From Eubacteriales bacterium (lineage in GTDB: Bacteria > Bacillota > Clostridia > Oscillospirales > SIG627), in the NCBI GenBank assembly GCA_045536965.1, contig JAZSON010000019.1, positions 7,393 through 71,392 on the forward strand: a stretch of 64,000 nucleotides of DNA, written 5' to 3'. Position numbers and translations under genes: made by a program. Below the pieces are notes generated by a model, which was not told the origin of the DNA, did not search any database, and worked only from the letters and a program-made list of their open reading frames with translations. Shown here in pieces: positions 7,640 to 28,335 of the stretch (within the stretch, counting starts at the first letter, position 1; each line of letters opens with the position of its first letter).

Positions 7640-7668
7640 TTGACGTAATTTAAATTGCATGATAGAAT
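7640..7668 (+). promoter_or_regulatory. Sigma-A promoter of the defence cluster, with a palindrome in the spacer
   Basis: TTGACG-17 nt-TAGAAT with TG extension. Spacer contains the perfect palindrome AATTTAAATT. Confidence 0.65.
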
Positions 7669-7707
7669 ATATTGATAAGAATAAATCAAGCGGGAGGGAG
7701 TGGAAAG

Positions 7708-9270
7708 ATGACAAAACGCGACGATTTTTGGACCGATGACAAGCTCTTGCCTGCCTCTCGCCGCCGCGATCTCTCGAGCACCGAAATCACATCAAATACC
7801 ACTTTCCCCGCTCTCCCAATCACACCGTCCCGCACCATGTATGAAAACGGTCTGTTCCACCCGCTTGAGATGGGTGAGGGGGAAAGCACCATGCTGAATC
7901 AAAACAGCCGTATTCTCATTTCTGCCACCGTAAGCTTTCCGGGATATGAAAAAATGGCTTTTCGCGAGTACCGCAAAAAAGCTTTGACCTCCCACAACAC
8001 TTCCCCAAAAGCGGCCGCTCCTTACCGCTCCTTTTACACCGTTATGCCGCGGTATGAATCCCTTGGCAAGGAGCAATTCCACTATTATCTCACTTGGCGC
8101 GACAAGGTCAGGCAGGGGAAATATATTCAGGTCGATTACGGGTATCTGTACCTGTATATTTATGAACTTCTCAATCTAATCGGTGATCTGCCTCCGCAGG
8201 ATGTCCTTTCCGCCCTTTTGTCCCTTTGGAAAGCCTATCGCAAGGATTTCCCCATGCTGGATAGGCAACTCGGGGATTGGTTGTTGGATCTGTGCATCCT
8301 TTGGAAGCTTCCTCTTCCCGCGGAAGATATTTTGGATATTTATTGTACCGGCGAACAAAAAACGCTGCCCCTCTCGGTCGTTTGCGGCGTGGTAGACGGA
8401 TTGCTTTGCGGAAAAATCCCCCTTACGCCCCCGCGCAAGGAACTGCTCTTAAAGCATTTTTGTTCCTATCATTTCCGTCAAAGCCGCTACTATCGAGAGA
8501 ACGGTCGCTTTGCCGAGCGCATGGAAGATCTTATAACAGAGTTGCTTCCCAAAATCATAGCAAGCGGTATTTTGTTGCCGTCTCATTCATCCTCCGCCAT
8601 GAAACTCACGCGCATCGCTTTTTGGGGCACCGTCATTTCGGCTGAAAAACGGCGCGCCATCAAGCTGGAATATTACACCAATTGGGGTGAAGAAACCCTC
8701 TCTTCAGCGCTGGGTGATTGTTTAAAGGTTTTGGATAACGCCCTGCGCACTTCATTCGGCATTCGTTCCCGCCTTTCGGGTATGCATTTGCCCGAAGATA
8801 TCACCAAAATGATTACAAACACGGTGGCAGATGAAGCACCCGTCAAAATCCCCGTCAAAGTCCCCATAAAGCAAAAGAAAGCCGCGGTAGATTTAAAAAT
8901 TGCGCGCAACATGGAAGAATCCGCTTGGGAGACAACCAAACTCTTGACCGCTTATTTGACCGAGGATACCCCCGAAGAAGAAATCATACCCACGATACAG
9001 GCGGAAAAAAAAGCCACTCCCCCCTCTGCCGACAACCGCTTTGCCGTCCTCGACAAAACAGAAGCCAAGGCGCTTTTGCTTTTGGCAAAAAAAGACATCG
9101 CGGCATTGCGACAGCTGGCATTGCAAAATGCACTGTTTCCCGAAGCCCTTGCAGACGCTATCAATGAAAAACTACTCGATTTTTACGGCGAACCCATCTG
9201 TGATGCGCAGGGGGTCTACGACGAATATGCCGATGAAATACTATCATCGGCACCCGATTATGAAAGGTAA
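7708..9270 (+). CDS. TerB_N/TerB_C domain protein, Shango SngA-like
   Basis: PRYESL..EQ..YYLTWR...VDYGYLYLYIYELLN (TerB_N) and LADAINEKLLDFYGEPI (TerB_C). GGAGGGAG RBS. Sits before a DUF2791 ATPase and an Lhr-like helicase. Confidence 0.8.
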   Translation: MTKRDDFWTDDKLLPASRRRDLSSTEITSNTTFPALPITPSRTMYENGLFHPLEMGEGESTMLNQNSRILISATVSFPGYEKMAFREYRKKALTSHNTSPKAAAPYRSFYTVMPRYESLGKEQFHYYLTWRDKVRQGKYIQVDYGYLYLYIYELLNLIGDLPPQDVLSALLSLWKAYRKDFPMLDRQLGDWLLDLCILWKLPLPAEDILDIYCTGEQKTLPLSVVCGVVDGLLCGKIPLTPPRKELLLKHFCSYHFRQSRYYRENGRFAERMEDLITELLPKIIASGILLPSHSSSAMKLTRIAFWGTVISAEKRRAIKLEYYTNWGEETLSSALGDCLKVLDNALRTSFGIRSRLSGMHLPEDITKMITNTVADEAPVKIPVKVPIKQKKAAVDLKIARNMEESAWETTKLLTAYLTEDTPEEEIIPTIQAEKKATPPSADNRFAVLDKTEAKALLLLAKKDIAALRQLALQNALFPEALADAINEKLLDFYGEPICDAQGVYDEYADEILSSAPDYER

Positions 9271-9276
9271 ACCATC

Positions 9277-10605
9277 ATGAGTGCAGAGATTGTCATTCCC
9301 AGAAGAACGCTCGGAACCCTCTTAAATGCCACCGCGGCGGGTGTTGTTCCCCGCACGGGACTTGAATACATGGCCATCGGACGGGAAAACGAAGTGCGTG
9401 CCATATTAAACGATTTTGAAAATGTTGCCGACGGTATGGGAGCATTCCGTTTTCTCATCGGTCGGTACGGAAGCGGCAAAAGTTTTCTCATCGGCCTAAT
9501 GCGCTCCAATGCCTTGGAACGCGATTTTGTTACCGCCGACGCCGATCTTTCTCCCGAACGCCGCTTTTCCGGCACCAAGGGACAAGGGGTAGCCACCTAC
9601 CGCGAATTGATGAAAAACCTCGCCACCAAATCCTCTCCCGACGGAGGCGCGCTTTCGGTGATCCTCTCACGCTGGTTTTCCAAGGTACAGGCAGAGGTGG
9701 TCACCACTTGCGGTCTGACCCCGAACGATGAGGCTTTTTCTCTCGAAGTGCAAAAACGCATCACCGAAACGGCAACCTCTCTCCAAAGCCTTGTCAACGG
9801 CTTTGATTTTTCCCATGTATTGACCGTTTATTACCGCGCCGTCAGAAACGGCGACGATCATCTCGCCTCGGATGCCATGCGTTGGTTGCGCGGAGAGTTT
9901 TCCACCCGTACCGAAGCAAGATCCGCTCTCGCCGTCAGCACCATCATCGACGACTCCAATTGGTACGATTACTTGAAATTGCAAGCGAGTTTTTTCCGCG
10001 CCATCGGCTATCGCGGACTCATTGTCTTTTTTGATGAGTGCGTAAATCTATACAAAATTCCCAATCGCATTTCCCGCGAAAACAATTATGAAAAGGTGCT
10101 TTCCATGTTCAATGATACACTGCAGGGCAAAGCGGAAGGACTGGGAATTTACATGGGCGGTACCCCGAAATTTTTGGAAGATGAGCGTCGCGGACTTTAC
10201 AGTTACGAAGCACTCAAGAGCCGCCTTTGCGGCGGTCATTTTGCGGGAGAATACACCGATTGGCTTTCCCCTGTAATTCGCTTGAGCCGTTTGGACGACA
10301 GCGCTCTCTTTGCCCTTTTGGTGCGAATGCAAGGATTGTTTTCCCGCTACCACAACATCCCCCCCGCCTTAAACGACCAAGCGCTTCTTCGCTTTTTGCA
10401 ATTTTGTCTGGATAAAATGGGAAGCGATGAATACCTGACTCCTCGGGAGGTTTTACGGGACTTCCTGCATGTACAAAGCATTTTGATGCAAAACCCCACC
10501 CTCTCGGTTGACACGCTTCTCGGAGACGGCGCCGTAACCATGACACGGAGCGGCAAGGAAGAAACCGAAGATGATCCTTTCGGCATGAATGACATTGTGG
10601 GGTAA
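9277..10605 (+). CDS. DUF2791 P-loop ATPase (BrxD-like), Shango SngB-like
   Basis: GVVPR.GL...IGR..E, Walker A GRYGSGKS, ADLSPERR, Walker B FFDECVN, GLYSYEALKSRL and TPREVLRDF. Confidence 0.9.
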   Translation: MSAEIVIPRRTLGTLLNATAAGVVPRTGLEYMAIGRENEVRAILNDFENVADGMGAFRFLIGRYGSGKSFLIGLMRSNALERDFVTADADLSPERRFSGTKGQGVATYRELMKNLATKSSPDGGALSVILSRWFSKVQAEVVTTCGLTPNDEAFSLEVQKRITETATSLQSLVNGFDFSHVLTVYYRAVRNGDDHLASDAMRWLRGEFSTRTEARSALAVSTIIDDSNWYDYLKLQASFFRAIGYRGLIVFFDECVNLYKIPNRISRENNYEKVLSMFNDTLQGKAEGLGIYMGGTPKFLEDERRGLYSYEALKSRLCGGHFAGEYTDWLSPVIRLSRLDDSALFALLVRMQGLFSRYHNIPPALNDQALLRFLQFCLDKMGSDEYLTPREVLRDFLHVQSILMQNPTLSVDTLLGDGAVTMTRSGKEETEDDPFGMNDIVG

Positions 10606-10608
10606 ACA

Positions 10609-12792
10609 ATGAAAAAACTTTCGCAAGACGAAATATTTAGACGTTTCTCCCCTTATATTCGGGACTTTATCTATAAAAACGGATGGGAAGAATTACGCGA
10701 GGTACAATGCCTTGCGGCAAGCATTCTGTTTGAAAGCGAGGATAACCTTTTAATCACCTCGCCCACCGCTTCCGGTAAAACCGAGGCGGCACTTTTCCCT
10801 CTTTTGACCATGCTCGACGGTCAATTTTCAGATTCGGTGGATATTTTATATATCGCTCCCCTCAAATCTCTGATCAACGATCAATTTTCCCGTCTTGATC
10901 CTCTCCTTGAGGGAAATATGCCTGTTTTTCATTGGCACGGAGATGTACCAAGTGGGGCGAAGGAAAAATTTATTCGTAGGCCTCGCGGTATTTTGCAAAT
11001 CACCCCCGAATCACTGGAAAGCATGCTTCTCCACCGTTCTCAAGATATTCCACGCATTTTCGCCCACCTTTCTTATGTTATCATTGATGAGATCCATGCC
11101 TTCGCGGGACAGGATCGCGGTGAACAGCTTCGATGTATTTTGGAACGCATTGCACGTTTGATCGGCCACTGTCCCCGTCGCATCGGCCTGTCGGCCTCGG
11201 TGGGAGATCCACGCGCCATGGCCGATTGGCTGGGAGCGGGCACCCCGTATGAAAACGCTGTGGCCGAAGTGCAAAACGCTTCTGTCAGATGGCGTCTTGC
11301 CATGCAGCATTTCTTTACCGATCAACCCGATTCGGAAGACGGTCTTACCTTGGATGCCGCCTATGCTTTTGTGTATGCCGCCACCGAGCAAAACAAATGC
11401 CTCGTTTTCTCCAATTCCCGCGAAGAAACCGAACAGGTCACCGCTTCTCTGCGACAAATTTCCCGCAAAAAGGGGGAGCGCGACCGCTTTATGATCCACC
11501 ACGGCAATCTTTCTGCGGCCCTCCGAGAAGAAGCAGAGCACTCTTTACGCGAGACCACACATCCCATGACCGTCTGCGCCACCGTTACATTGGAGCTGGG
11601 TATAGACATTGGGCAACTTAACCGCATCATCAATATGGGTTCTCCCAACACGGTCGTCAATTTTCTCCAACGCTTGGGTCGCTCGGGCAGACGAAATGTC
11701 CCCCCCGAAATGATGATGGTTTTCCGCGAAGAGAAGGCTCTGCCCAACGCGCCTGTGTATCAGGCTGTTCCTTGGGAGCTGATTCGCGGCATCGCCATTG
11801 TACAGCTTTATCTTGAAAGCCGCTTTTTAGAAGAGAGCCGTCCGAAAAGCATGCCGATGAGCCTGCTTTTCCATCAAACACTCGCAACCCTTGCATCGGC
11901 AGGCGAGTTATCTCCCGCCGCGTTGGCCGATCGCATCTTGTCCCTCTCCCCCTTTGCACAGGTCGATCCGCAAGATTTTAAAGCTTTGCTGATTCACCTT
12001 TTGGAAACGGGTATGGTGGAAAAAGGAGAGGAAGGCGGTATCATTACAGGAGTTTCTGCCGAGCGCCTTCTCGGAGATTATCGTTTTTATGCAGTATTTA
12101 AGGACAGCGAAGATTATACCGTTCGCGAAAAATCCGAAGAAATCGGCACCATCACCACACCACCTCCCATCGGTGATCGCTTTGCACTCGCGGGCAGGGT
12201 GTGGGAGGTAGAGGAAATTGATTTGCCGCGAAAACTCATTTATGCAAAAAAAGTAGATGGCAAAATGGATGTTGCCTGGCCGGGAGACCGCGGAGAAATC
12301 CACACCCGTGTTCTTGAACGGATGAAACGCGTTTTAACCGAAGATACCATTTACCCTTATCTCAAGCCATCGGCTGCCGAGAGACTTGCGCAAGCCCGTC
12401 TTTTAGCCAAACAAACGGGATTTGCAACCCAACCGCTGATTTGTCTGGGCGGAAACCGATACTGCCTTTTCCCGTGGCTGGGTACCCGCGCCATACGCAC
12501 CTTAAAACGGCTTTTGGTCTATTTTTCACGCGAACTTGACCTGACCGACGTGCAGTATGACGGTTGTTATTACCTTTCTTTCCGTACGGGATGTACGCAG
12601 TTTATGACACGGCTGCTTGCTTGTCTTGCGGATGATCGTTTGCCCGACAGGGAAAAATTGCTCGCCGCATCCGAATATCCCGCGCAGGATAAATATGACA
12701 GCTTCATTCCGCCGATGCTTTTGAAAAAAGCGTATGCAAGGGATCGGCTGGACTACACCGATATACGCCGTCGTTTGACGGAATGGAAATAA
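10609..12792 (+). CDS. Lhr-like DEAD/DEAH helicase, Shango SngC-like
   Basis: PTASGKTEA, PLKSLINDQ, TPESLE, DEIH, HHGNLS, TLELGIDIG and QRLGRSGRR motifs are all intact. Confidence 0.9.
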   Translation: MKKLSQDEIFRRFSPYIRDFIYKNGWEELREVQCLAASILFESEDNLLITSPTASGKTEAALFPLLTMLDGQFSDSVDILYIAPLKSLINDQFSRLDPLLEGNMPVFHWHGDVPSGAKEKFIRRPRGILQITPESLESMLLHRSQDIPRIFAHLSYVIIDEIHAFAGQDRGEQLRCILERIARLIGHCPRRIGLSASVGDPRAMADWLGAGTPYENAVAEVQNASVRWRLAMQHFFTDQPDSEDGLTLDAAYAFVYAATEQNKCLVFSNSREETEQVTASLRQISRKKGERDRFMIHHGNLSAALREEAEHSLRETTHPMTVCATVTLELGIDIGQLNRIINMGSPNTVVNFLQRLGRSGRRNVPPEMMMVFREEKALPNAPVYQAVPWELIRGIAIVQLYLESRFLEESRPKSMPMSLLFHQTLATLASAGELSPAALADRILSLSPFAQVDPQDFKALLIHLLETGMVEKGEEGGIITGVSAERLLGDYRFYAVFKDSEDYTVREKSEEIGTITTPPPIGDRFALAGRVWEVEEIDLPRKLIYAKKVDGKMDVAWPGDRGEIHTRVLERMKRVLTEDTIYPYLKPSAAERLAQARLLAKQTGFATQPLICLGGNRYCLFPWLGTRAIRTLKRLLVYFSRELDLTDVQYDGCYYLSFRTGCTQFMTRLLACLADDRLPDREKLLAASEYPAQDKYDSFIPPMLLKKAYARDRLDYTDIRRRLTEWK

Positions 12793-12810
12793 AAATCAGG
12801 AGATCACGCT

Positions 12811-15800
12811 ATGAACGAAATGAAATTACAGCTTGAACTTTCAGCCATCTACGGTTATGCCCTCTCCTACAATCGCTTTCCCGCCATTGAAAGAATTCTG
12901 TTGGATACACCCTATGAAGTCACAGGTGATCTTGTACTGACACTGACGGCCAAGCCTGCCTTTTTTCAGTCGAAGATCATTCCGATCCACACACTGACAA
13001 AAGGCGGTCATTTTGCCATCTGCGCCCCCCAATTGACCTATCACGCCGATTATCTTGCCTATTTGGAAGAAAATGTTCCTGCCGTTGTGATCGCGAGTTT
13101 AACCCAAAATGGTAAGGAGATCGCCTCTGCCAAGCATCCGATCACCCTGCTCCCCGCCAACGTTTGGAGCGGCAGTGAGATTATGCCCGAACTTTTGGCC
13201 ACGCTGATTTCTCCTGCACAAGAGGAAATCCAAAAAACCGTCGATCAAGTCTGCGCAGAGCTTTCTCCCCGCGATATTTTCCGCCACCGCGATTATAGTG
13301 ATCACAGCCCAAAAGCCATTTTAACCATGATGGAAACACTGTATCACACACTGCGGAGTTTGCGCTTGTCCTACGCCATGCACACACCTGATGCCAATAA
13401 AAAGGGCGTTTCCTTATGCTATCCCGAAGCGGTGTTACAATATCGCAAAGGTAACAGTTTGGAGCTTGCTCTCCTTTTCGCTTCACTGCTCGAAGCATTG
13501 GGCATGCATCCCGTTCTCGCGCTTTTCAAGCAACAGACCATCGTTGGTTGTCATTTGCGTAAGACTGCCTTTCCCTCGTCCGCTTTCCATACATATCACA
13601 CACTCTTTACCCGCGACGGTAAAAACGGAAAAGAAGGCGCTGTCTGTTTTCTGGATATGGCTACCCTTGCTTACGGCACATCATTTTCCTTTGAGGAAGC
13701 CATCAAAAGCACCTATTCCGTCATGCGGGAAAATGCCGCCGATTTTGTGGTTGCCATTGACATATATCGCGCCCGCCACAACGGTATTTCTTCTCTCCCC
13801 GATCGTGTTCTTTCGGGAGACAATCGGATTTTTGCCAATATTGACGCAGCCTTGGACAAAATGCCCGGATACGATGACCTTGCTGCCCGTTCCATCGGAG
13901 ATGTCTATGACCGCGCTTCGGCCCTTTTCCGCAACCGTATCATCACACAAGATGATGATATTCTTCTTTCGACCCATGAAAACGGAAACGGTCTGCAATT
14001 GATCGATATAGATCCGACCGTCATCGTAAGTAAATTGATGCAAGCGGGCGGGGTGGATATCGCCCCCTCTCCCTTCCGCTTTTCGGGTCAAGATCGGGAT
14101 GTTGCCGATCTCTGTTTGATTGGCGAACATCTTGCATCTTCTATCCCCCCCGAAGAGGATGACCCCGTTCTCACCTCATTTTTAGAGAAAAAAAGTCTGC
14201 AAAAATATTTAAGCCGCTTATCCGACATGGCCGACCGCCGCGCCGACGAATGCGGTTATACGGGACTGTGTGTCGGTATGGGACTGATCCGCTACACCGA
14301 GACCCACTCCGATGATATTTCCTATGCGCCCGCTATCCTCTATCCCGTTCGGTTGCTCACAAATACCGAGGACAAAGGATACCGTTTGGTGTCTACCGGC
14401 GAAGCGCCTCTTTATCATGAGGCCCTTTTTGAAAAACTCCACCGCATTTTCGGTATTCGTCCCGATGGATTGCCAAGTTTAGCGGGACGTGGTTTTGCCG
14501 CACTCATCCCCGGTGTTTTACGCCAAATCAAGTCAGCCTATTCCCTCTGTTCGGGCGTGACCCTTTGCAGCGGAAGCTGTCTGGGTATATTCGCCTGCGA
14601 CAATGCCCACCTGCTTTCTCTGCTCTCCCCTCACACATTGCGTTCAAATCCCCTTTCTTCCGCTCTCGTTTCGCAAAAATATCCCATGGATGAAGAACCT
14701 ATTTTCCGCACCCCTACCTCCGCCCTACTTCCCATGGACGATAAGCAATACGCTGCTTTCCACACCGCTCTTGCCCACACGATCTCTCTCACCGAGGGAC
14801 AAAGCGGAAGCGGGAGAAGCCGTGTGGCCGAAAATTTGATGTTCCATCTTTTAGAAAACGGAAAGCGTGTGCTGTATGTCGCTTCTTCTCAAAGCAGTGT
14901 GCAAAATATGTTTAAGCGTTTGAAGGCAAACGGTCTGGAGGAAGCCGCAGTTGCATACGGAGCATCCGCTCCCATTTTGGCCCCTGCCTTCCCCACCGCC
15001 TCCCTTACGTTGCCGCCGCCCGAAAGCAGTCTGCCCGTCTTAATGGCACAGATTGCCCATTGTAAAAATGAGATTGATTCTTACTATGCAGCACTGAAAA
15101 AAGTGGGACTGTTTGGTTTTTCGTTCACACGCGCCCTCCAACAGTTTGAACGTTACCGTGATGCCGATGCCGTCCCTTTCACCCCGCTTGAACTGACAGG
15201 CCTGACAAAAGATGAAATCGCGTTGCGGTTTGACACAGCAGCAACCCTTTTTGCCGCAGGACACGCTTGCGGAGAACCGCACAACCACATTTTACGCGGG
15301 GTTACCGTCCACGATTTATCTCCTGTCGAAATGGAAGAAGCAACCCTTTTAACCGCAGAGTTGCCCGCGCTTTATCAGCAATTTATAAAACAGATCACCG
15401 CGCTTGCTTCGGCCGTAAAAGTCGATGTTCCGCAAACAAGCGACGCCATCGCTACCCTTTGGGAATCAGCTCGCATATTTGCAGCCGCTCCCATGGGTAT
15501 GGTCAAAAAACTTTTGGTCAGCGATCTTTTCGAAGAATCCTCTCCCACCGAAATATTAAAATCCGCCGCTTCAGCCATGGACATCCGAGAGCATTTAGAT
15601 TCCCTTTTTGCCGACGGTGCTTTTTCTCTGCCGGTGGAAGAAATGATCAACGATTTGCAAAATGCGCAAAACCTCTCTTTCTTCAAAAAGAAGACCATTC
15701 GAACAGCAACTTTGCATCGATTGAATGAGTATACCAAAAACGGATACACCTGCAAGCTGTCCGAACTTGAGGATATTCTGATACAGTTTAGCTTGTACCG

Positions 15801-17838
15801 CACTCGTTTAAATGCGGCAGGCGATATTTTCGCAAAGCTTTCCTCCCTCTTTGGATTTGCCGATTGGGCATTGGATACACTGCCTGCGGGAACCATCCGT
15901 CAAATGGCCGCCGCCTCGGAGGTGTGCGACAGTCTCCGCAACCGATTTGCCGCCAAGGATTTAAACGACTTGGCCGATTCTCTCCCCGAAAGCACGCAGA
16001 CGGTTGCAGAAATCCTCCGAGAAGCAGAATCTGCCTACTCGTTATGGAGCCACTCTTTCCGTTCTTGGGCTTCGCTTTTGAAGATCGCCTTACCAAGCGG
16101 TCTTACCGTGGAGGGCGCCCCCTTCTCGCTCCTTGCCGAAACGGTTGACACCATAAAGCGCGGCATTGATCGTCTGCCTGCTTGGTGCCATTATTTGGCG
16201 GTTAAACAGACCGCTCTCCAAAACGGACTTGAAAAAGTAGTTGCCATGTACGAAAGCAAGCCATTGACTTCCGAAAACATGGAAGCATCGTTCGTCAAAG
16301 GTTTCTTTGATGCAGCCTGCCGTTCCATTCTGCTGACAGAAGATGTTTTGCGTACATTCAACCCCGCCGTTTTTGCCGCCAAGATTGCGCATCTGGAAAA
16401 ATTGGAGGAAACCTTCCGCAAGCAGGCGCTTGAAACCTTCTTAACTTCCCACACCAATCTGTGCAATGCCTATTACACCGATCACCTTCGCAACGCTCCG
16501 CAGTATGCCCGTTGCCTTGAAAACAATGAATGCTTAAATGTCGGAAGACTAGATAGTCTTTTGCCCGAAGCGGCCGATGTACGCTTTCCCTGCGTGCTGT
16601 CTTGCACCGCGCCCATTCTGCGAAAAATGCGTGAACGCCCTGGATTTGCCGCGTTTGATTGCGTGATCTTCGACGAAGCCGAAAACATTCCGTTTGACCA
16701 TGCGTTGGCCATCATTGGTTGTGCTCGTCAAATCGCTGTTTTCGCTTCTCCCGCCCTCGGAAGCCGCACATCCCACCGTTTCATCGCAGAAAGCACACCT
16801 CTTTGTTCTACAAACCGCGAAGACATGGATAGCCTTTATGAGGTAATTGGCAACAACTGCCCCAACAAAACGGTTTTAACGCAAGGGTATGCCGCCCCCG
16901 GTCTTGCTGATATTTTCGCTTCGTTGACAACCAGAAAACCCATTCATCCCACCATGCCAAACGCTTCTCCCGTCCGTTTTGATGACGCCGTTGAGGTAAC
17001 AGTGATTGACGAAAATATTACCGATTCTTTCAATCCTGAGGATGCGGAAGCCATCGGTATCATTCAAACACTTACAGCCTTGTCCGAACAAACACCCGTT
17101 CCCTCTGTCGGAATCATAACCGGTAACCATGAACAAGCAAAACGAATCGAACGTTATTTATCGGCATTTCTCTCCCGTGACGCTTCTCTTGCAAAGAGAT
17201 TGGCAGAAAGTCAGGAGGCTTTGTATATCACCCCCTTGTCGGATGCCACCGACAGACCACGGGATTACATTCTCTTTTCTCCCGCCATCACCCTCTCAAA
17301 ACAAGATGCCTCCATCCCCACCGCAGCTACCTTCGCCATTCCCGATTGCCGCGCTCGTTTGGATGCCGCTGTTGGTTCGGCCAAGAAAAAAATGCATGTT
17401 GTCTGCGCTTTTTCTCCCGCCGTTGTATCAAAAAAATCGACGCTTGACGATTCTTATAATGCACTTTGCGACTTTTTCCTTGCCCTGAACACAAAGACAA
17501 TATATACCCCCCTTCCCTCGACCGTCACGAGCCGTTCGGAGGAAACGGTTTGCCAAACCATTTGCACCCGTCTGCACGCTGAAGGATACCTGACCGTTTA
17601 TCCCATGAGCGAGAGCATTGACATCGCCGTCTCGATGCCCGATGCACCCGATACCTATCTTCTCGGCATCACCCTCGATCAAACCGCTCTTCACGCCGCA
17701 AAAGATACTTCGGCGCGAGAATGCATCCTCCCTCGGCATCAAAAAGCCCACGGCTGGCAAATACACCGCATATTGGCGCCCGCATGGTACGCCGACAGAG
17801 AGGCCTGCCTAAAAGAAATTTTCTCCAAATTGCCTTGA
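12811..17838 (+). CDS. Large DUF4011 / SF1 helicase / Vsr-like REase protein (Hhe-like) with degenerate catalytic motifs
   Basis: AGGAG RBS. Domain order: N-terminal transglutaminase-like region, DUF4011-like GLCVGMGLIRY...YAPAILYPV, EGQSGSGRS/GKRVLYVA, FDCVIFDEA, then C-terminal IDIAV...YLLGI.LD...GWQIHRI..W. Confidence 0.8.
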   Translation: MNEMKLQLELSAIYGYALSYNRFPAIERILLDTPYEVTGDLVLTLTAKPAFFQSKIIPIHTLTKGGHFAICAPQLTYHADYLAYLEENVPAVVIASLTQNGKEIASAKHPITLLPANVWSGSEIMPELLATLISPAQEEIQKTVDQVCAELSPRDIFRHRDYSDHSPKAILTMMETLYHTLRSLRLSYAMHTPDANKKGVSLCYPEAVLQYRKGNSLELALLFASLLEALGMHPVLALFKQQTIVGCHLRKTAFPSSAFHTYHTLFTRDGKNGKEGAVCFLDMATLAYGTSFSFEEAIKSTYSVMRENAADFVVAIDIYRARHNGISSLPDRVLSGDNRIFANIDAALDKMPGYDDLAARSIGDVYDRASALFRNRIITQDDDILLSTHENGNGLQLIDIDPTVIVSKLMQAGGVDIAPSPFRFSGQDRDVADLCLIGEHLASSIPPEEDDPVLTSFLEKKSLQKYLSRLSDMADRRADECGYTGLCVGMGLIRYTETHSDDISYAPAILYPVRLLTNTEDKGYRLVSTGEAPLYHEALFEKLHRIFGIRPDGLPSLAGRGFAALIPGVLRQIKSAYSLCSGVTLCSGSCLGIFACDNAHLLSLLSPHTLRSNPLSSALVSQKYPMDEEPIFRTPTSALLPMDDKQYAAFHTALAHTISLTEGQSGSGRSRVAENLMFHLLENGKRVLYVASSQSSVQNMFKRLKANGLEEAAVAYGASAPILAPAFPTASLTLPPPESSLPVLMAQIAHCKNEIDSYYAALKKVGLFGFSFTRALQQFERYRDADAVPFTPLELTGLTKDEIALRFDTAATLFAAGHACGEPHNHILRGVTVHDLSPVEMEEATLLTAELPALYQQFIKQITALASAVKVDVPQTSDAIATLWESARIFAAAPMGMVKKLLVSDLFEESSPTEILKSAASAMDIREHLDSLFADGAFSLPVEEMINDLQNAQNLSFFKKKTIRTATLHRLNEYTKNGYTCKLSELEDILIQFSLYRTRLNAAGDIFAKLSSLFGFADWALDTLPAGTIRQMAAASEVCDSLRNRFAAKDLNDLADSLPESTQTVAEILREAESAYSLWSHSFRSWASLLKIALPSGLTVEGAPFSLLAETVDTIKRGIDRLPAWCHYLAVKQTALQNGLEKVVAMYESKPLTSENMEASFVKGFFDAACRSILLTEDVLRTFNPAVFAAKIAHLEKLEETFRKQALETFLTSHTNLCNAYYTDHLRNAPQYARCLENNECLNVGRLDSLLPEAADVRFPCVLSCTAPILRKMRERPGFAAFDCVIFDEAENIPFDHALAIIGCARQIAVFASPALGSRTSHRFIAESTPLCSTNREDMDSLYEVIGNNCPNKTVLTQGYAAPGLADIFASLTTRKPIHPTMPNASPVRFDDAVEVTVIDENITDSFNPEDAEAIGIIQTLTALSEQTPVPSVGIITGNHEQAKRIERYLSAFLSRDASLAKRLAESQEALYITPLSDATDRPRDYILFSPAITLSKQDASIPTAATFAIPDCRARLDAAVGSAKKKMHVVCAFSPAVVSKKSTLDDSYNALCDFFLALNTKTIYTPLPSTVTSRSEETVCQTICTRLHAEGYLTVYPMSESIDIAVSMPDAPDTYLLGITLDQTALHAAKDTSARECILPRHQKAHGWQIHRILAPAWYADREACLKEIFSKLP

Positions 17839-17845: not shown

Positions 17846-17874
17846 GCATATTCACTCCCCTCCTCGCATACAAT
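17846..17874 (+). promoter_or_regulatory. Putative sporulation sigma-E promoter
   Basis: GCATATT-14 nt-CATACAAT, matching the B. subtilis sigma-E consensus and spacing. Confidence 0.6.
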
Positions 17875-17895
17875 GCGGTGTGAGGAGGGGGAAAA

Positions 17896-18312
17896 ATGAC
17901 AAACACGACACAAAAATCCAATCCCAAAAACACATTAAAAGCCATTATTTTCAGCGCACTCTTTGCTTTAATTTCAGCTTTTGTTCTATTGGCTCTTGGT
18001 GTTTGGATTTTGGAAAAAATCCCGAAAAGCGAACGTTTTGAACCAATCTTCGTTCTCTCTGTTCAACTTCTTTGCGGTTTTATCGGCGGCTGGATCTCTT
18101 CCCTTTCCAAACAAAATTGTTTTTTGCGCGCCTCGTCTACCGCCGCTTTATTTACGTTTACCATGCTTTTACTGTCTTTTGTCTTTTTATCACCCGCCCC
18201 CCTTCCCGCTTTTCTTTCGGCTCTGCCGATCATACCTGCGGGCATAGCGGGAGGATGTCTCAATGCCTTTAGAAAAACCAAGAAAACTCATCGGAAAACA
18301 AAACGAAAATAG
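17896..18312 (+). CDS. Four-TM membrane protein, TIGR04086/YrzE-like
   Basis: Four hydrophobic helices, GFIGG and AGIAGG motifs, basic C-terminal tail. Strong RBS. Confidence 0.65.
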   Translation: MTNTTQKSNPKNTLKAIIFSALFALISAFVLLALGVWILEKIPKSERFEPIFVLSVQLLCGFIGGWISSLSKQNCFLRASSTAALFTFTMLLLSFVFLSPAPLPAFLSALPIIPAGIAGGCLNAFRKTKKTHRKTKRK

Positions 18313-18331
18313 GATCGAAAGGAAAGGACGT

Positions 18332-19714
18332 ATGAAAAAAAGACTTTTCGTTTGCCTGCTCTGCATTCTTTTTCTATGCAGTTGCGCCGATACTCCTTTT
18401 GAGGAATCCATTCGGCAACCGCTTTCCTCAGATACAAACGGTACCGAGCGTTCCTACAATCATTTGATCTTCTTTGCCGATGCGCTGGAATTTCCGAGCG
18501 CATCGGGTTTTCGCGTTCTCCGCACCGAAGCCGACATCGAAAACCACCATGAATCCCTTTGTTTTCCCGTACATACCACTACCCGCCTTACCGCCCTCAT
18601 CAGCGATACCCTGCGGGCACGGTTGGACACCTTGATCCCCGAGGACGCCGATCTCGTAAAACTGGATTTTGACTACTTTTCCGAAGATTCCCGTTATGAT
18701 TTTTCTTTTGTATTGGATATTTACAAACAGGGAAAACATGCCGACAGCAGTTATTTTGCCCTCTACGTGGACGTGGAAAACAAACGTTTTCTTTCTTTCG
18801 GCGAATTGCTCGACAGCCCGAATTATATGCCCTATCTGCAAGCATACATCCAAGATTACCTGCAAACAGAGTACAAAATTGAAGAAAAGGCCGCGAAACA
18901 GTATGCAAACACATTGCAGGAACCCAATGATTTCCGCTTAATCGATGATGGAGCAGGCGGCATGGAAGTCTATCTCGATGCTACCTCACTCGGACTTGAA
19001 AAGCGCACGCTCATCGAAGTGCCCGAATCGAGGCTATACAGTTTCGGTACAGCCGATGCCACTTATGATCCCGTTGTCGGCAAAGAGCGCGCTGTTGCCC
19101 TTACGTTTGACGGCGGTTTATCCGACACCACCTTGAAACTGCTCGATATTTTGCAAAACGCTGATGCGCACGGCACCTTTTTCCTGCTGGGAAAAAGCTT
19201 GGAAAACGCCGATTCCACCATCGCCACCCGCACCCTCAACACCATTTTATCCACAGGCAGTGAAATCGGAAATCTATCCTACACGGGGGAAAACTTTTTG
19301 CATTTATCCTCCGAAGAAGTCGTGCAATCTATTTACAAAACACAAGAATGGGTGTATAATCTATGTGGTTTATACCCTCGTGTTGTCCGTCCGCCCACAG
19401 GGGGGATTCAGGATAACCTCATCAAAAAACTTCCTTTCTTTGTCATCCACTGGTCGGTCAATTTGCAGCATGATAAGACCCTTGGTCTTACAGCAACCGA
19501 CGGTATGACCCCGCAGGAAATTGCCGATCAATTTATGAAGCGTATTCAAAGCGGTTCTATTGTGGTCATCCATGAAAATCTGCCCGACGAAGTGGAAGCC
19601 GTGCCGTTCCTGGTGGAAAAACTGCGCGAAAAAGGATACCGACTGGTTACAGTCAGCGAACTTTTGTCCTTGGCGGAAAGCGAACCCGGGCAAAAGATAT
19701 ATAAAAAACGGTGA
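18332..19714 (+). CDS. Lipoprotein with C-terminal CE4/NodB polysaccharide deacetylase-like domain (degenerate active site)
   Basis: Lipobox-like FLCSC. ALTFDGG, GTFFLLG, GNLSYTG, RPPTG, GSIVVIHE and GYRLVTVSELL motifs. Confidence 0.8.
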   Translation: MKKRLFVCLLCILFLCSCADTPFEESIRQPLSSDTNGTERSYNHLIFFADALEFPSASGFRVLRTEADIENHHESLCFPVHTTTRLTALISDTLRARLDTLIPEDADLVKLDFDYFSEDSRYDFSFVLDIYKQGKHADSSYFALYVDVENKRFLSFGELLDSPNYMPYLQAYIQDYLQTEYKIEEKAAKQYANTLQEPNDFRLIDDGAGGMEVYLDATSLGLEKRTLIEVPESRLYSFGTADATYDPVVGKERAVALTFDGGLSDTTLKLLDILQNADAHGTFFLLGKSLENADSTIATRTLNTILSTGSEIGNLSYTGENFLHLSSEEVVQSIYKTQEWVYNLCGLYPRVVRPPTGGIQDNLIKKLPFFVIHWSVNLQHDKTLGLTATDGMTPQEIADQFMKRIQSGSIVVIHENLPDEVEAVPFLVEKLREKGYRLVTVSELLSLAESEPGQKIYKKR

Positions 19715-19718: not shown

Positions 19719-20372
19719 ATGAAAACAACACTTTTTTCAAAAAAGTTTTTTTCTCTCAAAAGGATCATTTCTTTCATTTTTTGCCTTGCTTTGATCATCA
19801 TTGTCTTGGCGGTTGTTTTCGGAAACGACAACGAGACAACGTCATCCCCCTCTTCCAAAATCGATCTTTATCCCGTCATCAAAGACGACGATGTTTTTAC
19901 AGATCCACTCTACTGCCGTCTCCGTTACGAAGAATATGGCTATATCACCTACGAGGGAGAAACCCTTTTTAAGGAAGACGAAACAGGGGATTACACTCTG
20001 CAAGATGTTTTTTGCCGTTTTTTCAAGGAGTATTTCGATTCCATTGTCGCGGGTGATGTAAAAGCCTATAAAACTTTCTTTGTATCGCCTCCCAAAAAAG
20101 GTGATTTCACCACCCAAAAACTATTAAACATTGAAATCAATCAGTCCAGCCAAGGTGAAACCGAAATCGGCGGAAAAACACAAGCCACCCGCAATTTCAT
20201 CGTCACCTACAATATCTATCAAAACAACGGAACCTTTCGAAACGATCTTTCTCAAAGTCGATACGATGCGGGTGGGAATTTCCGCCCCATTGCCATTGAA
20301 GAAATCTATACCATCACACATATAGACGGTGCTTGGAAGATCGTCCAGATTGCACGTTCAAAAAATTTCTAA
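19719..20372 (+). CDS. Hypothetical membrane-anchored protein (possible NTF2-like extracellular domain)
   Basis: Single N-terminal TM, YFDSIVAGD and C-terminal DGAWKI. Starts 4 nt after the preceding stop. Confidence 0.6.
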   Translation: MKTTLFSKKFFSLKRIISFIFCLALIIIVLAVVFGNDNETTSSPSSKIDLYPVIKDDDVFTDPLYCRLRYEEYGYITYEGETLFKEDETGDYTLQDVFCRFFKEYFDSIVAGDVKAYKTFFVSPPKKGDFTTQKLLNIEINQSSQGETEIGGKTQATRNFIVTYNIYQNNGTFRNDLSQSRYDAGGNFRPIAIEEIYTITHIDGAWKIVQIARSKNF

Positions 20373-23401: not shown

Positions 23402-24163
23402 TTATAGGGGTTTTGATTTGATTTTGGCATAGGCGCGAGGGTATTGCGGGGGTGTACTCTTTATTTTTTCGATCACAACGATATAGCGATCGATGGCGAA
23501 AAAGGATGAAAGTTCCTCCTGTGCAACACCGTCATCGGCAGGCGAAAACGTCTGCTTGACAGGCATGATCTCCTTAACTCTGCCGCCAAGAAGCGCAATG
23601 CCCTTTTGCGCTGCCGCCACCTCCTCCTCGGCTTTCGGCCCTTTCATTGCCAGAAAGACACCGCCGACACGAACGAAGGGTAGGCAAAGTTCATCGAGAA
23701 TATCCAGCGATGCCACCGCTCTTGCGGTCACAACATCAAATTTTTCCCGCATAGGCTCACCAAGCGCAGACAACACCTCAGCGCGATCGGCTATCGTTTT
23801 GACACCCGAAAGCCCCATTTTCTCAGCACACGACGCTACAAAACGCAGTTTTTTCTCGGTGGAATCCACCATGCTGATCTTTAAATGCGGAAGGGCAATC
23901 TTCAAAGCAAGACCGGGAAAGCCGCCGCCACAGCCGATATCGGCAACGCTTTTGGCATTTTGAAGGGCAGGCAGAGCGCAAAGAGAAAGAGAGTCGGCGA
24001 AATGACGCAATACCACGCCATCTTCACTTTTAACTGCCGTAACATTTAAATGTCCCGCAGTATCGGTCAGACAGTCAAGCAAAAGGGAAAACGACTCAAT
24101 TTGCTTTTCATCAAGCGGTATCGGGCTGGCATCCCGCAACCACTGTTTATGCAATGGCTTCAT
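23402..24163 (-). CDS. rsmG: 16S rRNA m7G527 methyltransferase
   Basis: HFADSL, DIGCGGGFPG, TARAVA, LAMKG and TP..YPR motifs. Follows mnmG. Confidence 0.95.
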   Translation of the reverse strand: MKPLHKQWLRDASPIPLDEKQIESFSLLLDCLTDTAGHLNVTAVKSEDGVVLRHFADSLSLCALPALQNAKSVADIGCGGGFPGLALKIALPHLKISMVDSTEKKLRFVASCAEKMGLSGVKTIADRAEVLSALGEPMREKFDVVTARAVASLDILDELCLPFVRVGGVFLAMKGPKAEEEVAAAQKGIALLGGRVKEIMPVKQTFSPADDGVAQEELSSFFAIDRYIVVIEKIKSTPPQYPRAYAKIKSKPL

Positions 24164-24172
24164 TTTGTCTCC

Positions 24173-26062
24173 TCATCGGTTTAGGTATAGCATCAAAACG
24201 GTAATATCAGCAGGTGAAACACCCGAAATACGGGAGGCTTGTCCCAAACTCTCGGGACGGATTTGATCGAGTTTTGCTGCCGCTTCCAACCGAAGCCCCT
24301 TGATCTCCTTGTAAGGAATATCTTTGGGAATGGCTCTGTTTTCCATTTTTGCAAAAGCCTCGATCTCTCGCATTTGACGCTTGATATATCCCGCATACTT
24401 AATTTCAATCTCGGCACGATGAAGTGTATCTTCGGTATAAACACCGTAATCGGGACGGTGAATATCCACCGCAGAAAGTTCTTTATAACCCAATGCAGGT
24501 CTGCGAAGAAGATCACCCAAACGAATACCCGTTACAACAGGAGGATTGCCGCTCTTTTCCAAAATGACATTCAATTCATCGCTCGGCGAAAGATGGGTGT
24601 TTTCCGCCCGCTCTACCTCTTGGTCAATACAGGCAAACAACCTTTGTTTATCCTCATAATGCTCCTTTGAAACAAGGCCGATCCGCAAGCCGATGTCGAT
24701 CAATCGACGGTCGGCATTGTCCTGACGAAGAACCAAACGATATTCACAACGGGAAGTCATCATACGGTAAGGCTCATTGGTTCCCTTGGTGACCAAATCA
24801 TCGATCAATGTACCAATATAAGAGGATGCACGGGTTAAAATCATGCTTTCTTCCCCGCGGATTGCAAGGGCTGCATTGATACCTGCGACGATTCCTTGCG
24901 CCGCCGCTTCCTCATAACCCGAAGTGCCGTTAAACTGTCCTGCGCCGTAAAGTCCCGGAAACTCCTTCATTTCCATGGTGGGACGAAGCTGCAAAGGATC
25001 AATACAATCATATTCTATGGCATAAGCAGGACGAATAAACACAGCATCCTCCAAGCCTACAATAGAGTGAACAATGTCACGCTGTACATCTTCAGGCAAC
25101 GAGGAACTAAGCCCCTGCACATAGATCTCCACCGTATCCTCTCCCATTGGCTCTAAAAACAACTGATGGCGTTCTTTATCGGGAAAACGGACAATCTTAT
25201 CTTCGATACTGGGGCAGTAACGCGGTCCTGTCCCCTTTATCTCACCCGAAAACAGCGGAGAACGATGCAAATTGGCACGAATGATGTCATGTGTTTTTTG
25301 ATTGGTATAAGTGATATGACACTTTTTTTGCTCCATTGCACGGAAAGCATCTCGATCGGTTCGGGAGGAAAAACACACGGGAGGCACATCCCCCTCTTGG
25401 GATTCGGTGCGATCAAAATGAATACTGTCGCGGTGCAAACGCGGGGGAGTTCCTGTTTTAAATCGGAATATACGCAAGCCAAGTTTTTTCAATGCATCGG
25501 TTAACCCGACGGCAGGTAAACTATTGTCGGGGCCCGCAGGATGGAAAGATTCGCCCACAATGACCCGCGAGTCGAGATAGGTGCCCGTGGCAATAATCAC
25601 CGCGCGGCAGTAATATACGCCCCCCAAACGGGTAGCAACCGCCCAACGGTCATTCTCACGCCAAACATCCACTGCCTCGCCTTGAATCAGCGAAAGACAC
25701 GGGGTGTTCTCCAACACTTTTTTCATATATGTACGATAACGCATACGATCAGACTGCATCCGCAAGGAATGGACGGCAGGACCTTTGGAGGCATTCAGCA
25801 TGCGGCTTTGCAGACACACATAATCGGCCGCTTTGCCCATTTCACCGCCAAGCGCATCGATCTCATATACAAGTTGTCCTTTGCCCGTTCCGCCGATAGC
25901 GGGATTGCAGGGCATATTACCAACCGCATCGGGCTGGAGAGTTAAAAGCACGGTGCTGCATCCCATACGCGCGGCAGCAAGCGCCGCTTCAATACCGGCA
26001 TGTCCGCCGCCAATGACCAAAACGTCAGGAGTACCAACCGTAAAACGAGATACTGTTTTCAT
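24173..26062 (-). CDS. mnmG: tRNA uridine 5-carboxymethylaminomethyl modification enzyme MnmG/GidA
   Basis: GGGHAGIEAA, MPCNPAIGG, FKTGTPPR, GPRYCPSIEDK and GTSGYEEAAAQG motifs. Confidence 0.98.
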   Translation of the reverse strand: MKTVSRFTVGTPDVLVIGGGHAGIEAALAAARMGCSTVLLTLQPDAVGNMPCNPAIGGTGKGQLVYEIDALGGEMGKAADYVCLQSRMLNASKGPAVHSLRMQSDRMRYRTYMKKVLENTPCLSLIQGEAVDVWRENDRWAVATRLGGVYYCRAVIIATGTYLDSRVIVGESFHPAGPDNSLPAVGLTDALKKLGLRIFRFKTGTPPRLHRDSIHFDRTESQEGDVPPVCFSSRTDRDAFRAMEQKKCHITYTNQKTHDIIRANLHRSPLFSGEIKGTGPRYCPSIEDKIVRFPDKERHQLFLEPMGEDTVEIYVQGLSSSLPEDVQRDIVHSIVGLEDAVFIRPAYAIEYDCIDPLQLRPTMEMKEFPGLYGAGQFNGTSGYEEAAAQGIVAGINAALAIRGEESMILTRASSYIGTLIDDLVTKGTNEPYRMMTSRCEYRLVLRQDNADRRLIDIGLRIGLVSKEHYEDKQRLFACIDQEVERAENTHLSPSDELNVILEKSGNPPVVTGIRLGDLLRRPALGYKELSAVDIHRPDYGVYTEDTLHRAEIEIKYAGYIKRQMREIEAFAKMENRAIPKDIPYKEIKGLRLEAAAKLDQIRPESLGQASRISGVSPADITVLMLYLNR

Positions 26063-26074
26063 ATAAAATACCTT

Positions 26075-27457
26075 TTATTTTCCCACACAAAAACGGGAAA
26101 AAATATTATGTACAATCTCTTCACTAACCTGCCGACCATCGGTTTCCAAAAGAAAAGCAATCGCGCGTTCCAAAATCATGCCCGCAAGCTCATTTTGCCC
26201 CGAGGTGACAGTAACAATCATTTCCTCTAATAGCACTTTTGCTTGCTCCAAGCAACCACGCTGCCGCGCGCTGAAGAGTAAGCCGCCATCAGACAAGCAA
26301 ATATCAGACGAAAGATAGAGCGATTCGATTTTCTCTTTTAGTTTTTCTACACCCTCTCCCGTTTTTACCGAAAGCTGCAAAACAAAACCGAAAGAGCGGG
26401 TAAGCAGTTCTGCATCAAATGTTTGCAAAAGATCTGATTTTGTCAAAACGGGAATGACGGTAGCCTCGACTTTACTGAGCCGATCGATCCATTCACAATC
26501 CTCTTGGGTGCAGGGACGCGATCCATCAAAAAGCGCCAGAATCAACTGCGTTTCATGAGAAAATATCTTATCCTCTGCGCGTTCAATCCCGATTTTTTCC
26601 ACCACATCCTCACTATGGCGAAGACCTGCGGTATCTGTTAAATTTAAAAGGACACGACCCACTTTGACGGGAAATTCAAGCAGGTCACGCGTGGTTCCGG
26701 GAATTTTTGTGACAATAGCCTTTTCTTCTCCGATCAAACAGTTGAAAAGAGAGGATTTGCCGCTGTTTGGAGTGCCTGCGATTACGGTAGGTACACCCGC
26801 TGTCACCGCACGTCCCGCGCGGTAGGTATTGAGCATATCTTTGATAGAATCTATTTCTTTTTCTACGGCTTGGATGAGTGAATCGTCGTCTAAATCTCTC
26901 AAATCCTCATCGGGATAATCAATGTAGGCGTAAAGGGTGGCCGTTAAAGCAATTAAACGGTCGGCAACACCGCGAATACCATTTGCCAAAATGCCGTCTC
27001 GCTGCGCGGATAAAAGATAAACCGCCGCTTCGCTTTTGGCTTCAAGCAGTTCTGCCGTCGCCTCTGCTTCAGAAAGAGACATTTTCCCGTTGATAAAAGC
27101 GCGTCGGGAAAATTCTCCTGCAGTTGCATAGCGCGCGCCTGCAGAAACGATTCTTTTCAACACCAGAGAGGTAACGACCACGCCGCCGTGACAAGAAATC
27201 TCGGCCATCTCGTCCCCCGTAAAGGATTTTCCTTTTTCATACCGCACGGCAAGCCCGGTGTCGATACGATTTCCATTTTCGTCTACAATATCACCGTAAA
27301 TTGCATAACGATAAGGGTAGCCCGAAAGTTGTCCTTTCATGGGACGAAAGACCTTTTGAAGAATTTCTCCCGTATCTTCCCCTGAAATGCGCAAAACGGC
27401 GATACCGCCCGTGCCCGTCGGTGTGGATACCGCGGCAATGGTATCATCTAATTTCAT
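26075..27457 (-). CDS. mnmE: tRNA modification GTPase MnmE/TrmE
   Basis: DTIAAVSTP, SFTGD..E...HGG, PNSGKSS, GTTRD, DTAG and C-terminal FCVGK. Confidence 0.97.
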   Translation of the reverse strand: MKLDDTIAAVSTPTGTGGIAVLRISGEDTGEILQKVFRPMKGQLSGYPYRYAIYGDIVDENGNRIDTGLAVRYEKGKSFTGDEMAEISCHGGVVVTSLVLKRIVSAGARYATAGEFSRRAFINGKMSLSEAEATAELLEAKSEAAVYLLSAQRDGILANGIRGVADRLIALTATLYAYIDYPDEDLRDLDDDSLIQAVEKEIDSIKDMLNTYRAGRAVTAGVPTVIAGTPNSGKSSLFNCLIGEEKAIVTKIPGTTRDLLEFPVKVGRVLLNLTDTAGLRHSEDVVEKIGIERAEDKIFSHETQLILALFDGSRPCTQEDCEWIDRLSKVEATVIPVLTKSDLLQTFDAELLTRSFGFVLQLSVKTGEGVEKLKEKIESLYLSSDICLSDGGLLFSARQRGCLEQAKVLLEEMIVTVTSGQNELAGMILERAIAFLLETDGRQVSEEIVHNIFSRFCVGK

Positions 27458-27513
27458 GACTGTTTGCCTTTCATGAATAAGCGCGAAGAATCCCTTCTTC
27501 GCGCCCTAAATAC

Positions 27514-28317
27514 TCAATCGTTGAATGTGCTGGTTTCTTCCACGTCGGGAAGGATGTCGTCGATGCTCTTGGCCTTAACAATGACCTGCGCAGGACGCTC
27601 GGGAATAATGTACTTCTTTTCAAACACCGGCTTCTCGGTTTCTTGCTTTTTAGCCGTTGATTGGGAAGCAGAATCGTTTTTCGGTTGACGTTTCACTTGA
27701 TTTTCGGGGGAAACCACGATCTTACGGTTATCCTCACTGCCTACCGAGAAGGTGGTAACGCCTTCAATGTCCTGCACGGTTGCATGAATGATGCGGCGCT
27801 CATACGCACTCATAGGCTCAAGAGAAATGTTTCTTCCAATCTTTTTGGCGCGATTGGCAGTGCGGCGCGCTAAGTTTTGCAGAGTTATCTCGCGTTTTTC
27901 ACGGTAATTTTCAGCATCCAATGTGATGTGGAAATTTCCGTCGCAAACCTTGCCGACAGCCAAATTTGTCAAATACTGCAAAGCATCCAAAACTTCACCA
28001 TGGTGACCGATCAAAGTGCCGATCTCATCACCTGCGAGCACCAAACGAATATCTCTGCCACCGTCGGTTGCTGTAATGGTAATATCGGAAAGCCCCATAT
28101 CCGCAAAAACGGATTGCAAAAATTCCTTGGCCGCTTCCACAGGAGTCGGTGCAAAAGATACTTCAATCTTGGCATCGGTCGCGCCCATGCCTAAAAAGCC
28201 TTTTTTGGCTTGCTCTAAAACGACATATTCCAGAGAATCGATATCTCTTCCGAGCGTTTCTGCCGCTAAAGCAAGACATTCATCCACCGATTTTGCGGTA
28301 AAAATTTTCTTTTTCAA
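27514..28317 (-). CDS. jag: RNA-binding protein Jag/KhpB/EloR
   Basis: Jag_N (KKGFLG), KH (LIGHHGEVLDALQYL) and R3H (ERRIIH) domains. TTG start with GGAGG RBS. Confidence 0.93.
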   Translation of the reverse strand: MKKKIFTAKSVDECLALAAETLGRDIDSLEYVVLEQAKKGFLGMGATDAKIEVSFAPTPVEAAKEFLQSVFADMGLSDITITATDGGRDIRLVLAGDEIGTLIGHHGEVLDALQYLTNLAVGKVCDGNFHITLDAENYREKREITLQNLARRTANRAKKIGRNISLEPMSAYERRIIHATVQDIEGVTTFSVGSEDNRKIVVSPENQVKRQPKNDSASQSTAKKQETEKPVFEKKYIIPERPAQVIVKAKSIDDILPDVEETSTFND

Positions 28318-28335
28318 GATATTTCCTCCCATGCA

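Follow-up and report, generated by a model that had tools for sequence, protein, structure and literature searches.

The window, a 64,000-nucleotide stretch of contig JAZSON010000019.1 from a Eubacteriales bacterium (assembly GCA_045536965.1), carries on its forward strand a 5-kb gene that we call pseudo-ProA. Its 1675-amino acid (aa) product descends from the anti-phage helicase–nuclease ProA of Prometheus, reportedly described by van den Berg et al. in 2024, yet falls outside that family by its score, by the lack of DUF3320 and by its motifs. A sequence-only reading had described the gene as an intact open reading frame (ORF) of 1675 codons with a good ribosome-binding site, in which three catalytic modules (transglutaminase (TG)-like, helicase and nuclease) all look inactivated. 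The ORF is indeed stop-free, and AGGAG stands 8 nucleotides (nt) ahead of the ATG. The gene is present in one copy in the source genome, in which no active ProA was found, and its GC content and third-codon-position GC (GC3) are the same as those of the neighbouring genes, so that it was not recently imported. The gene and its domains are as follows.

12811..17838, + strand: pseudo-ProA gene, 1675 aa, intact ORF.
12811..13158, + strand: immunoglobulin (Ig)-like beta-sandwich, aa 1–116 (Z 9.6, root-mean-square deviation (rmsd) 3.2, 106 residues aligned to 5cl2, with many rows tied).
13159..13815, + strand: TG-like fold without Cys and His, aa 117–335 (GNSLE at 13450).
13966..14439, + strand: DUF4011, aa 386–543, above the Pfam cut-off; deleted in the orthologues of genus g5.
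14716..14970, + strand: N-terminal half of RecA1, with the Q motif kept (D643, Q646), the Walker A Lys changed to Arg and motif Ia eroded.
15028..16410, + strand: RecA1 insert that forms a long helical stalk and arm, aa 740–1200.
16576..17505, + strand: C-terminal half of RecA1 and RecA2, with motifs II, III, HYRS, QGDERD and VI degenerate; E1413 and Q1442 are invariant.
17563..17832, + strand: REase_MTES_1575 nuclease fold, with D1604 and D1623 kept and Glu, Gly and His replaced.

Structure prediction, one of the checks proposed with the sequence-only reading, gave confident AlphaFold2 models (predicted local distance difference test scores of 88.8 for residues 1–630 and 87.0 for residues 611–1675) in which the TG and superfamily 1B (SF1B) helicase folds were both recovered. 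With Foldseek, the C-terminal model matched Dna2, Setx, Aquarius and Upf1 at E-values of 1e-7, that is, the tandem RecA fold of SF1B helicases, and a profile match to Upf1 reached 9e-22 with a mixed alignment. The N-terminal model gave weak Foldseek matches only; its TG-like domain aligned to 3kd4 over 134 residues (Z 9.9, rmsd 3.1), and to LapG and PNGase with Z 8.0. No solved ProA-like structure was among the structure matches listed, and a search of the ESM Atlas returned DUF4011/AAA clusters only. The profile alignments proposed at the same time were partly successful: DUF4011 and REase_MTES_1575 (residues 1585–1674, 44.5 bits against a gathering cut-off of 38.2) were recognized, whereas AAA_11 matched below its cut-off only and AAA_12 had no Pfam match. 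DUF3320 likewise had no Pfam match and the nuclease domain forms the end of the protein, as the sequence-only reading had noted.

The best NCBIfam match of pseudo-ProA was Prometheus ProA (NF058533), at 477 bits against a cut-off of 1500; two orthologues scored 530 and 253, and four canonical relatives 2005–2170. The order of domains is that of ProA (Ig, TG-like, DUF4011, SF1B helicase with a long insert, MTES_1575), but DUF3320 is missing, helicase motifs I, II, III, V and VI are degenerate and the TG catalytic residues are gone. A DUF4011–helicase–Vsr-like layout is also shared with Hhe (NF042953, PADLOC PDLC02194; E-values of 7e-33 and 1.1e-19) and with the PADLOC candidate PDC-S37 (1.3e-69). 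Unlike Hhe, pseudo-ProA lacks the motor motifs, and it scored 113 bits against a cut-off of 2000.

Catalytic residues were counted in 32 aligned proteins from the bacterial family of the source organism and in 47 ProA-type comparison proteins, after exclusion of four contig-edge fragments from the alignments; P0003, a repeat with 99.9% identity to an included locus, was also left out. The family sample comprised 51 genomes, the genera of which carry labels such as g3 and g5. The motif changes quoted in the sequence-only reading were all present: GNSLE (13450), QQTI (13531), GQSGSGRS (14797), DEAEN (16672), TDRPRD (17248), ARLDAAVGSAK (17353) and GITLDQ (17665) aligned to GTCLD, GHAF, GPPGTGKS, DEASQ, QGDERD, RRLNVAxTR and GIxCDG of the ProA-type proteins, respectively. 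Since they occupy the canonical motif columns, the catalytic residues have been replaced and not shifted, a possibility that had been named as a ground for refutation. The loss is family-wide. The TG Cys was found in 0/32 family proteins against 45/47 comparison proteins and the TG His in 2/32 against 44/47; the acidic residue of the triad was found in 31 of the 32. The Walker A Lys was kept in 15/32 against 47/47, and neither the Gln of motif V nor the arginine finger of motif VI was present in any family protein, against all 47 comparison proteins in both cases; motifs Ia, Ic and V were eroded in the family. The Walker B Glu was kept in 46/47 comparison proteins and in a single family protein, that of the window. 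The change from DEASQ to DEAEN had been read as a loss, and the motif is indeed altered, yet its DE pair survives in the window protein, alone among the 32. This protein has Arg in place of the Walker A Lys, so that from the set required for ATP hydrolysis (Walker A Lys, Walker B Glu, motif III Gln and arginine finger) it retains the DE pair alone. Given this motif loss and the established chemistry of SF1 helicases and transglutaminases, ATP hydrolysis and protease-like chemistry appear very unlikely anywhere in the clade. The proposed inactivation of all three modules thus holds for the TG-like and helicase modules; the nuclease, which retains both aspartates (D1604 and D1623), may or may not be inactivated. 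All four ProA domains are described as essential for ProA activity in the available part of a published study (PMC13700489), which makes ProA-type defence by pseudo-ProA unlikely.

The degenerate proteins have a single origin. All 32 formed one clade with a support of 1.0, which grew to 45 members when representatives were added and nested among ProA-type proteins, four tested examples of which exceed the ProA cut-off. Within the clade the genera cohere, with the exception of g7, in a FastTree phylogeny with long branches and an unresolved sister group. A search with a family profile matched 35 of the 51 family genomes, including 20 of the 23 of high quality. Degenerate pseudo-ProA accounted for 34 of these matches, comprising 31 complete ORFs of 1390–1713 aa and three cut by contig ends, and internal stops were found in none. 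Fourteen genomes of g5 carry forms of about 1390 aa without DUF4011. The remaining match (G063; L074 7116–13013) is a canonical ProA of 1965 aa, unrelated to the dead clade in the tree and probably a later horizontal gain. In genome G010, the C-terminal part of the gene was seen on two contigs (C158 and C79; L056 and L057), representing a duplicate or bin contamination.

Outside the family, a class-wide sample contained a homologue in 34 of 398 genomes, and motifs II, III and HYRS were canonical at each of the 29 loci that were inspected; two candidates per genome were scored in this sample, so further diverged dead copies could be missed. A library clustered at 50% identity gave 127 long matches, 103 of them canonical, and most of the other 24 were family members or truncated canonical proteins. 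P0201 (1982 aa) retains the TG Cys and His, is degenerate in Walker A and motifs II, HYRS and V, and branches as the weakly supported sister of the clade; it is possibly an intermediate or a case of independent decay. A literature search, beyond the reach of which lay most subscription papers and supplements, found no description of a catalytically dead ProA/DUF4011 clade.

Unlike the patchy ProA, pseudo-ProA is vertically inherited and is probably a core gene of the family. The 17 non-carriers are scattered beside carriers on a spoIVA tree, on which 14 of them could be placed. Essential genes near the locus were absent from them as well: valS (0/4), ispD (0/4) and birA (0/5) in g5, apgM (0/9) and spoVAD (0/3) in g3 and apgM (0/2) in g6, although some of these empty searches were run without a positive control alongside. 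The whole region therefore seems to be missing from these assemblies, and the 17 absences are likely assembly gaps rather than real losses. A tie to the loss of sporulation was considered and rejected, spo0A being present in 49 and spoIVA in 46 of the 51 genomes; the source genome has both.

Purifying selection acts on the gene. The ratio of nonsynonymous to synonymous substitution rates (dN/dS) was 0.08–0.22 in the eight pairs, out of 12 compared, for which dS was finite, with dS near saturation throughout, and orthologues remained stop-free down to about 20% identity. These values, far below 1, bear out the expectation in the sequence-only reading of selection for fold or binding, as do the confident models. 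The constraint has, however, moved within the protein. Cross-genus identity (calculated without P0062) in the stalk was 0.25/0.27 in the family and 0.23/0.25 in ProA-type proteins, whereas it fell from 0.64/0.62 to 0.22/0.18 in RecA1, from 0.54 to 0.21 in RecA2 and from 0.41 to 0.16 in DUF4011, that is, to 0.29–0.39 of the canonical level in these three. Only the stalk ends flanking the helical insert matched the conservation found in active ProA. Together with the deletion of DUF4011 in g5, this shift would favour a scaffold for binding over a motor or clamp acting on nucleic acid.

We therefore propose, with a probability of roughly 0.55, that pseudo-ProA is a vertically inherited, single-copy ProA descendant that has lost the residues for ATP hydrolysis and the TG-like triad family-wide and works as a non-catalytic scaffold, which is predicted to bind protein partners through the helical stalk and the N-terminal Ig and TG-like domains. 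Among the three roles suggested in the sequence-only reading, a scaffold has the most support, since the stalk remained constrained while the motor became less so; a nucleic-acid sensor is weakened by the erosion of motifs Ia, Ic and V and by the 14 genomes of one genus that lack DUF4011. A prediction of self-association for residues 730–1210 scored 0.00, which gives no answer in either direction.

Several observations weigh against this proposal. The Q motif is retained (D643 in 30/32, Q646 in 27/32), so nucleotide binding by pseudo-ProA is possible, and the nuclease aspartates D1604 and D1623 are retained in 31/32, so metal binding by this domain may persist. Most of the conserved residues in the stalk are hydrophobic, and their role could be limited to folding. 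The fast divergence, to about 20% identity across genera, resembles that of SngA and would also fit an arms-race protein. Finally, core status hinges on treating the 17 absences as assembly gaps, yet these exceed the number predicted from completeness alone (spoIVA is missing in five genomes and spo0A in two), and the neighbour-gene test covered 16 of the 17, all but G064.

Upstream of pseudo-ProA lies a complete Shango operon (window 7672–12792), which, like the family-wide inheritance, was absent from the sequence-only reading. Its features are as follows.

7640..7668, + strand: sigma-A/70-type promoter-like site TTGACG-17-TG-TAGAAT ahead of sngA (10/12 match; the overall count of such sites is at chance level).
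7708..9270, + strand: sngA, Shango gene 1 (TerB_N and TerB_C; SngA 1.6e-43); the longest ORF starts at 7672, the ATG is at 7708.
9277..10605, + strand: sngB, BrxD-like ATPase (1.2e-165), with Walker A and B intact.
10609..12792, + strand: sngC, Lhr-like superfamily 2 (SF2) helicase (2.7e-226), with motifs intact.

The three genes are adjacent, their ATPase and helicase motifs are intact, and sngC is separated from pseudo-ProA by 18 nt; the promoter-like site likely drives sngABC and pseudo-ProA as a single transcript. The closest named record of SngB was from an uncultured Clostridiales metagenome-assembled genome (L060, 80% identity). The operon corresponds to the three-gene SngABC described for Shango in the part of the original report available (10.1101/2022.11.11.516204), but differs from that description in being inherited by genus and in being followed by a dead ProA in 11 genomes. 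These belong to five genera, which suggests that the sngC–pseudo-ProA adjacency is the ancestral arrangement; the gaps that were measured ranged from −21 to 28 nt.

Such an arrangement raises the alternative that pseudo-ProA is an accessory fourth Shango subunit, a sensor or adaptor for which SngB and SngC would supply ATP-driven activity while the dead ProA supplies recognition. The close spacing, the grouping of family Shango by genus with its ATPase motifs kept and the 25 of 51 genomes that hold both are all in its favour. Nevertheless, nine genomes carry the gene without SngC (four have SngC only and 13 neither), and here Shango was deleted at the locus: in g3, pfkB–sngABC–gene has become pfkB–gene, and in G002, DUF4956–sngABC–gene, the order seen in g4, has become DUF4956–gene, so that pfkB or DUF4956 now abuts pseudo-ProA. 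Pairs without Shango still gave dN/dS values of 0.21 and 0.16 with an unchanged domain profile. In g5 the two are unlinked, and 0 of 14 Shango loci outside the family, counted after two loci were dropped as repeats, had a ProA-like neighbour; a general pairing of Shango with ProA was thus not seen outside the family among the loci examined. Three-gene Shango also protects alone in P. aeruginosa, according to the accessible part of the same report (10.1101/2022.11.11.516204). At 15 of the 17 loci with pseudo-ProA as the first gene of its transcript, a sigma-A-like promoter precedes it, compared with 0 of 15 loci with the gene inside an operon, against a rate of about 1% in shuffled sequence (L039 and L043, which overlap sngC, were re-filed by hand). 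Given the nine SngC-less carriers, the selection acting there and the promoter of its own, pseudo-ProA does not require Shango, and the gene is likely expressed in growing cells. We consider a Shango subunit unlikely, although it is the best placed of the alternatives. The presence of SngC in 29 of the 51 genomes and its grouping by genus are unusual for a defence system. Four Shango-like loci (L066, L068, L070 and L073, at about 11325–14250) have after sngB a gene of 973–975 aa with no SngC BLAST match, possibly a different third component.

Under the non-catalytic scaffold that we prefer, the ProA gene and the Shango operon would have become fixed as neighbours in the ancestor of the family, driven by a single sigma-A promoter, the ProA motor would have become dispensable, and the protein would have been kept in growing cells for binding, in a role that no longer needs Shango. 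More tentatively, a motor-nuclease of innate immunity could have been fully domesticated throughout a family of gut Clostridia that form spores; pseudo-ProA would then be a core scaffold, structural or regulatory, that is expressed in vegetative cells and serves housekeeping instead of phage defence, and one case of a route repeatedly taken by ProA/DUF4011 helicases towards pseudoenzymes. Patchy distribution and a short life are the norm for defence genes; this one, 5 kb long, became fixed as what looks like a core gene once its enzymes were lost, and it outlived the defence operon that accompanied it. This would imply that ProA has a non-catalytic surface worth keeping, in the stalk around residues 740–850 and 1111–1200. 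Pseudo-ProA would provide a natural catalytic-dead control for studies of sensing and action by ProA, the mechanism of which is poorly known, and a testable case of exaptation from defence to housekeeping, albeit in uncultured hosts. As far as the available part of the report goes, a comparable core DUF4011 gene stands in every isolate at the edge of the P. aeruginosa defence hotspot cDHS1 (10.1101/2022.11.11.516204); it resembles pseudo-ProA in being large and at the edge of a locus often holding Shango, a comparison by presence and position in an unrelated host. The pseudohelicase Utp25 likewise keeps its helicase fold while its motifs are dispensable, as stated in the accessible portion of its description (PMC9539457), but it is a eukaryotic DEAD-box (SF2) protein of ribosome assembly, whereas pseudo-ProA is a bacterial SF1B protein of defence origin.

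A further alternative, also unlikely and ranking next, is that the motor is dead and the C-terminal domain still acts as a metal-dependent nuclease or nucleic-acid-binding effector. The full catalytic set of such nucleases is D..ExD..H. Besides both aspartates, an acidic residue at 1637 is present in 25/32 family proteins, and the domain passes its Pfam cut-off and, in g3 and in g8, ranks with the best-conserved domains. The Glu is absent from all 32, but it is missing too in 21 of the 47 comparison proteins, two of them above the ProA cut-off, so that its change is probably older than the pseudo-ProA clade. Many helicase-intact clostridial ProA-type proteins (e.g. L040, L074 and L091–L097) have GILLDG or GILCDG instead of GIECDG, and the Glu may be dispensable for ProA. 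Against an active nuclease, the DG glycine, the His and the RDR acidic residue are lost, the last being present in 47/47 comparison proteins and mostly Ala or Ser in the family, and the domain is wholly missing in G013 and P0095.

Downstream of pseudo-ProA follow a TIGR04086 membrane gene, a polysaccharide deacetylase gene, c1 and apgM, the first with a control region of its own.

17847..17891, + strand: promoter-like element CATATT-N14-CATACAAT, inside a hairpin (17856–17891, z −5.05) over the ribosome-binding site of the next gene.
17896..18312, + strand: gene for a small TIGR04086/DUF3792 membrane protein, more constant than any other neighbour (in 30 of the 32 loci for which downstream DNA was available).

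That pseudo-ProA is the cytoplasmic partner of this membrane protein is improbable. The gene does follow pseudo-ProA, in most cases no more than about 60 nt away, also at loci where every other neighbour has changed, and the two loci without it, both in g7, are the longest branches of the pseudo-ProA tree. However, the element, a mother-cell sigma-E/K-like promoter by its consensus, was found in 28 of 30 loci against 6.6 expected (the pattern having been picked post hoc), and the ribosome-binding site was paired in a hairpin in 27 of 31 loci, with z below −2 in 21 and with sequences that differ between loci. Hairpin and element together suggest a switch by which translation of read-through mRNA would be blocked and mRNA started during sporulation translated, and hence a TIGR04086 gene insulated from read-through and separately expressed. 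Its control region begins at the pseudo-ProA stop codon, which may account for the lasting linkage. The gene belongs to a TIGR04086–scfA–scfB operon, and in g7 it sits in this usual setting: scfA and scfB (SCIFF peptide and radical-SAM maturase) follow it there (L148 7938–9809, L149 5020–6792), and scfB also in g2 and g6, whereas both are absent after it in the window (18312–18332). A functional module of pseudo-ProA with TIGR04086 (34/34 carriers) and c1 (31/34), both unseen in the 17 non-carriers save for one weak match, was likewise rejected, because the non-carriers also lack valS, ispD, birA, apgM or spoVAD; the seeming joint absence is an assembly artefact. In the window c1 (19719–20372) encodes a membrane-anchored protein of 217 aa with no Pfam or NCBIfam match; it was found in 31 of the 51 family genomes and not in g8.

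More improbable still is the decoy offered in the sequence-only reading, in which pseudo-ProA would soak up phage anti-ProA proteins. A kept fold with fast-diverging sequence would suit such a role, but the source genome holds no active ProA to protect and only one of the 51 family genomes does, an identity of about 20% to ProA makes a poor mimic, and the locus is vertical and fixed whereas active ProA-type genes are patchy in the class. Functionless decay of a defence gene, to which the erased motifs and the losses of DUF4011 in g5 and of the nuclease in G013 might be ascribed, is refuted, unless the orthologue set is wrong, by the lack of internal stops in every family gene checked despite saturated synonymous sites, by the low dN/dS and by the retained promoter.

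Near-identical contigs were present in four animal-gut DNA runs, in which 20 of 21 short contigs matched pseudo-ProA with at least 99% identity. They differed from it by seven substitutions, four of them silent and three altering an amino acid, and showed no indel; a ratio of nonsynonymous to synonymous polymorphism (pN/pS) would need more differences than these. About 6 kb from the pseudo-ProA locus, the window also contains the cluster rsmG(gidB)–mnmG(gidA)–mnmE–jag–yidC (23402–29448), the usual place of which is near the replication origin.

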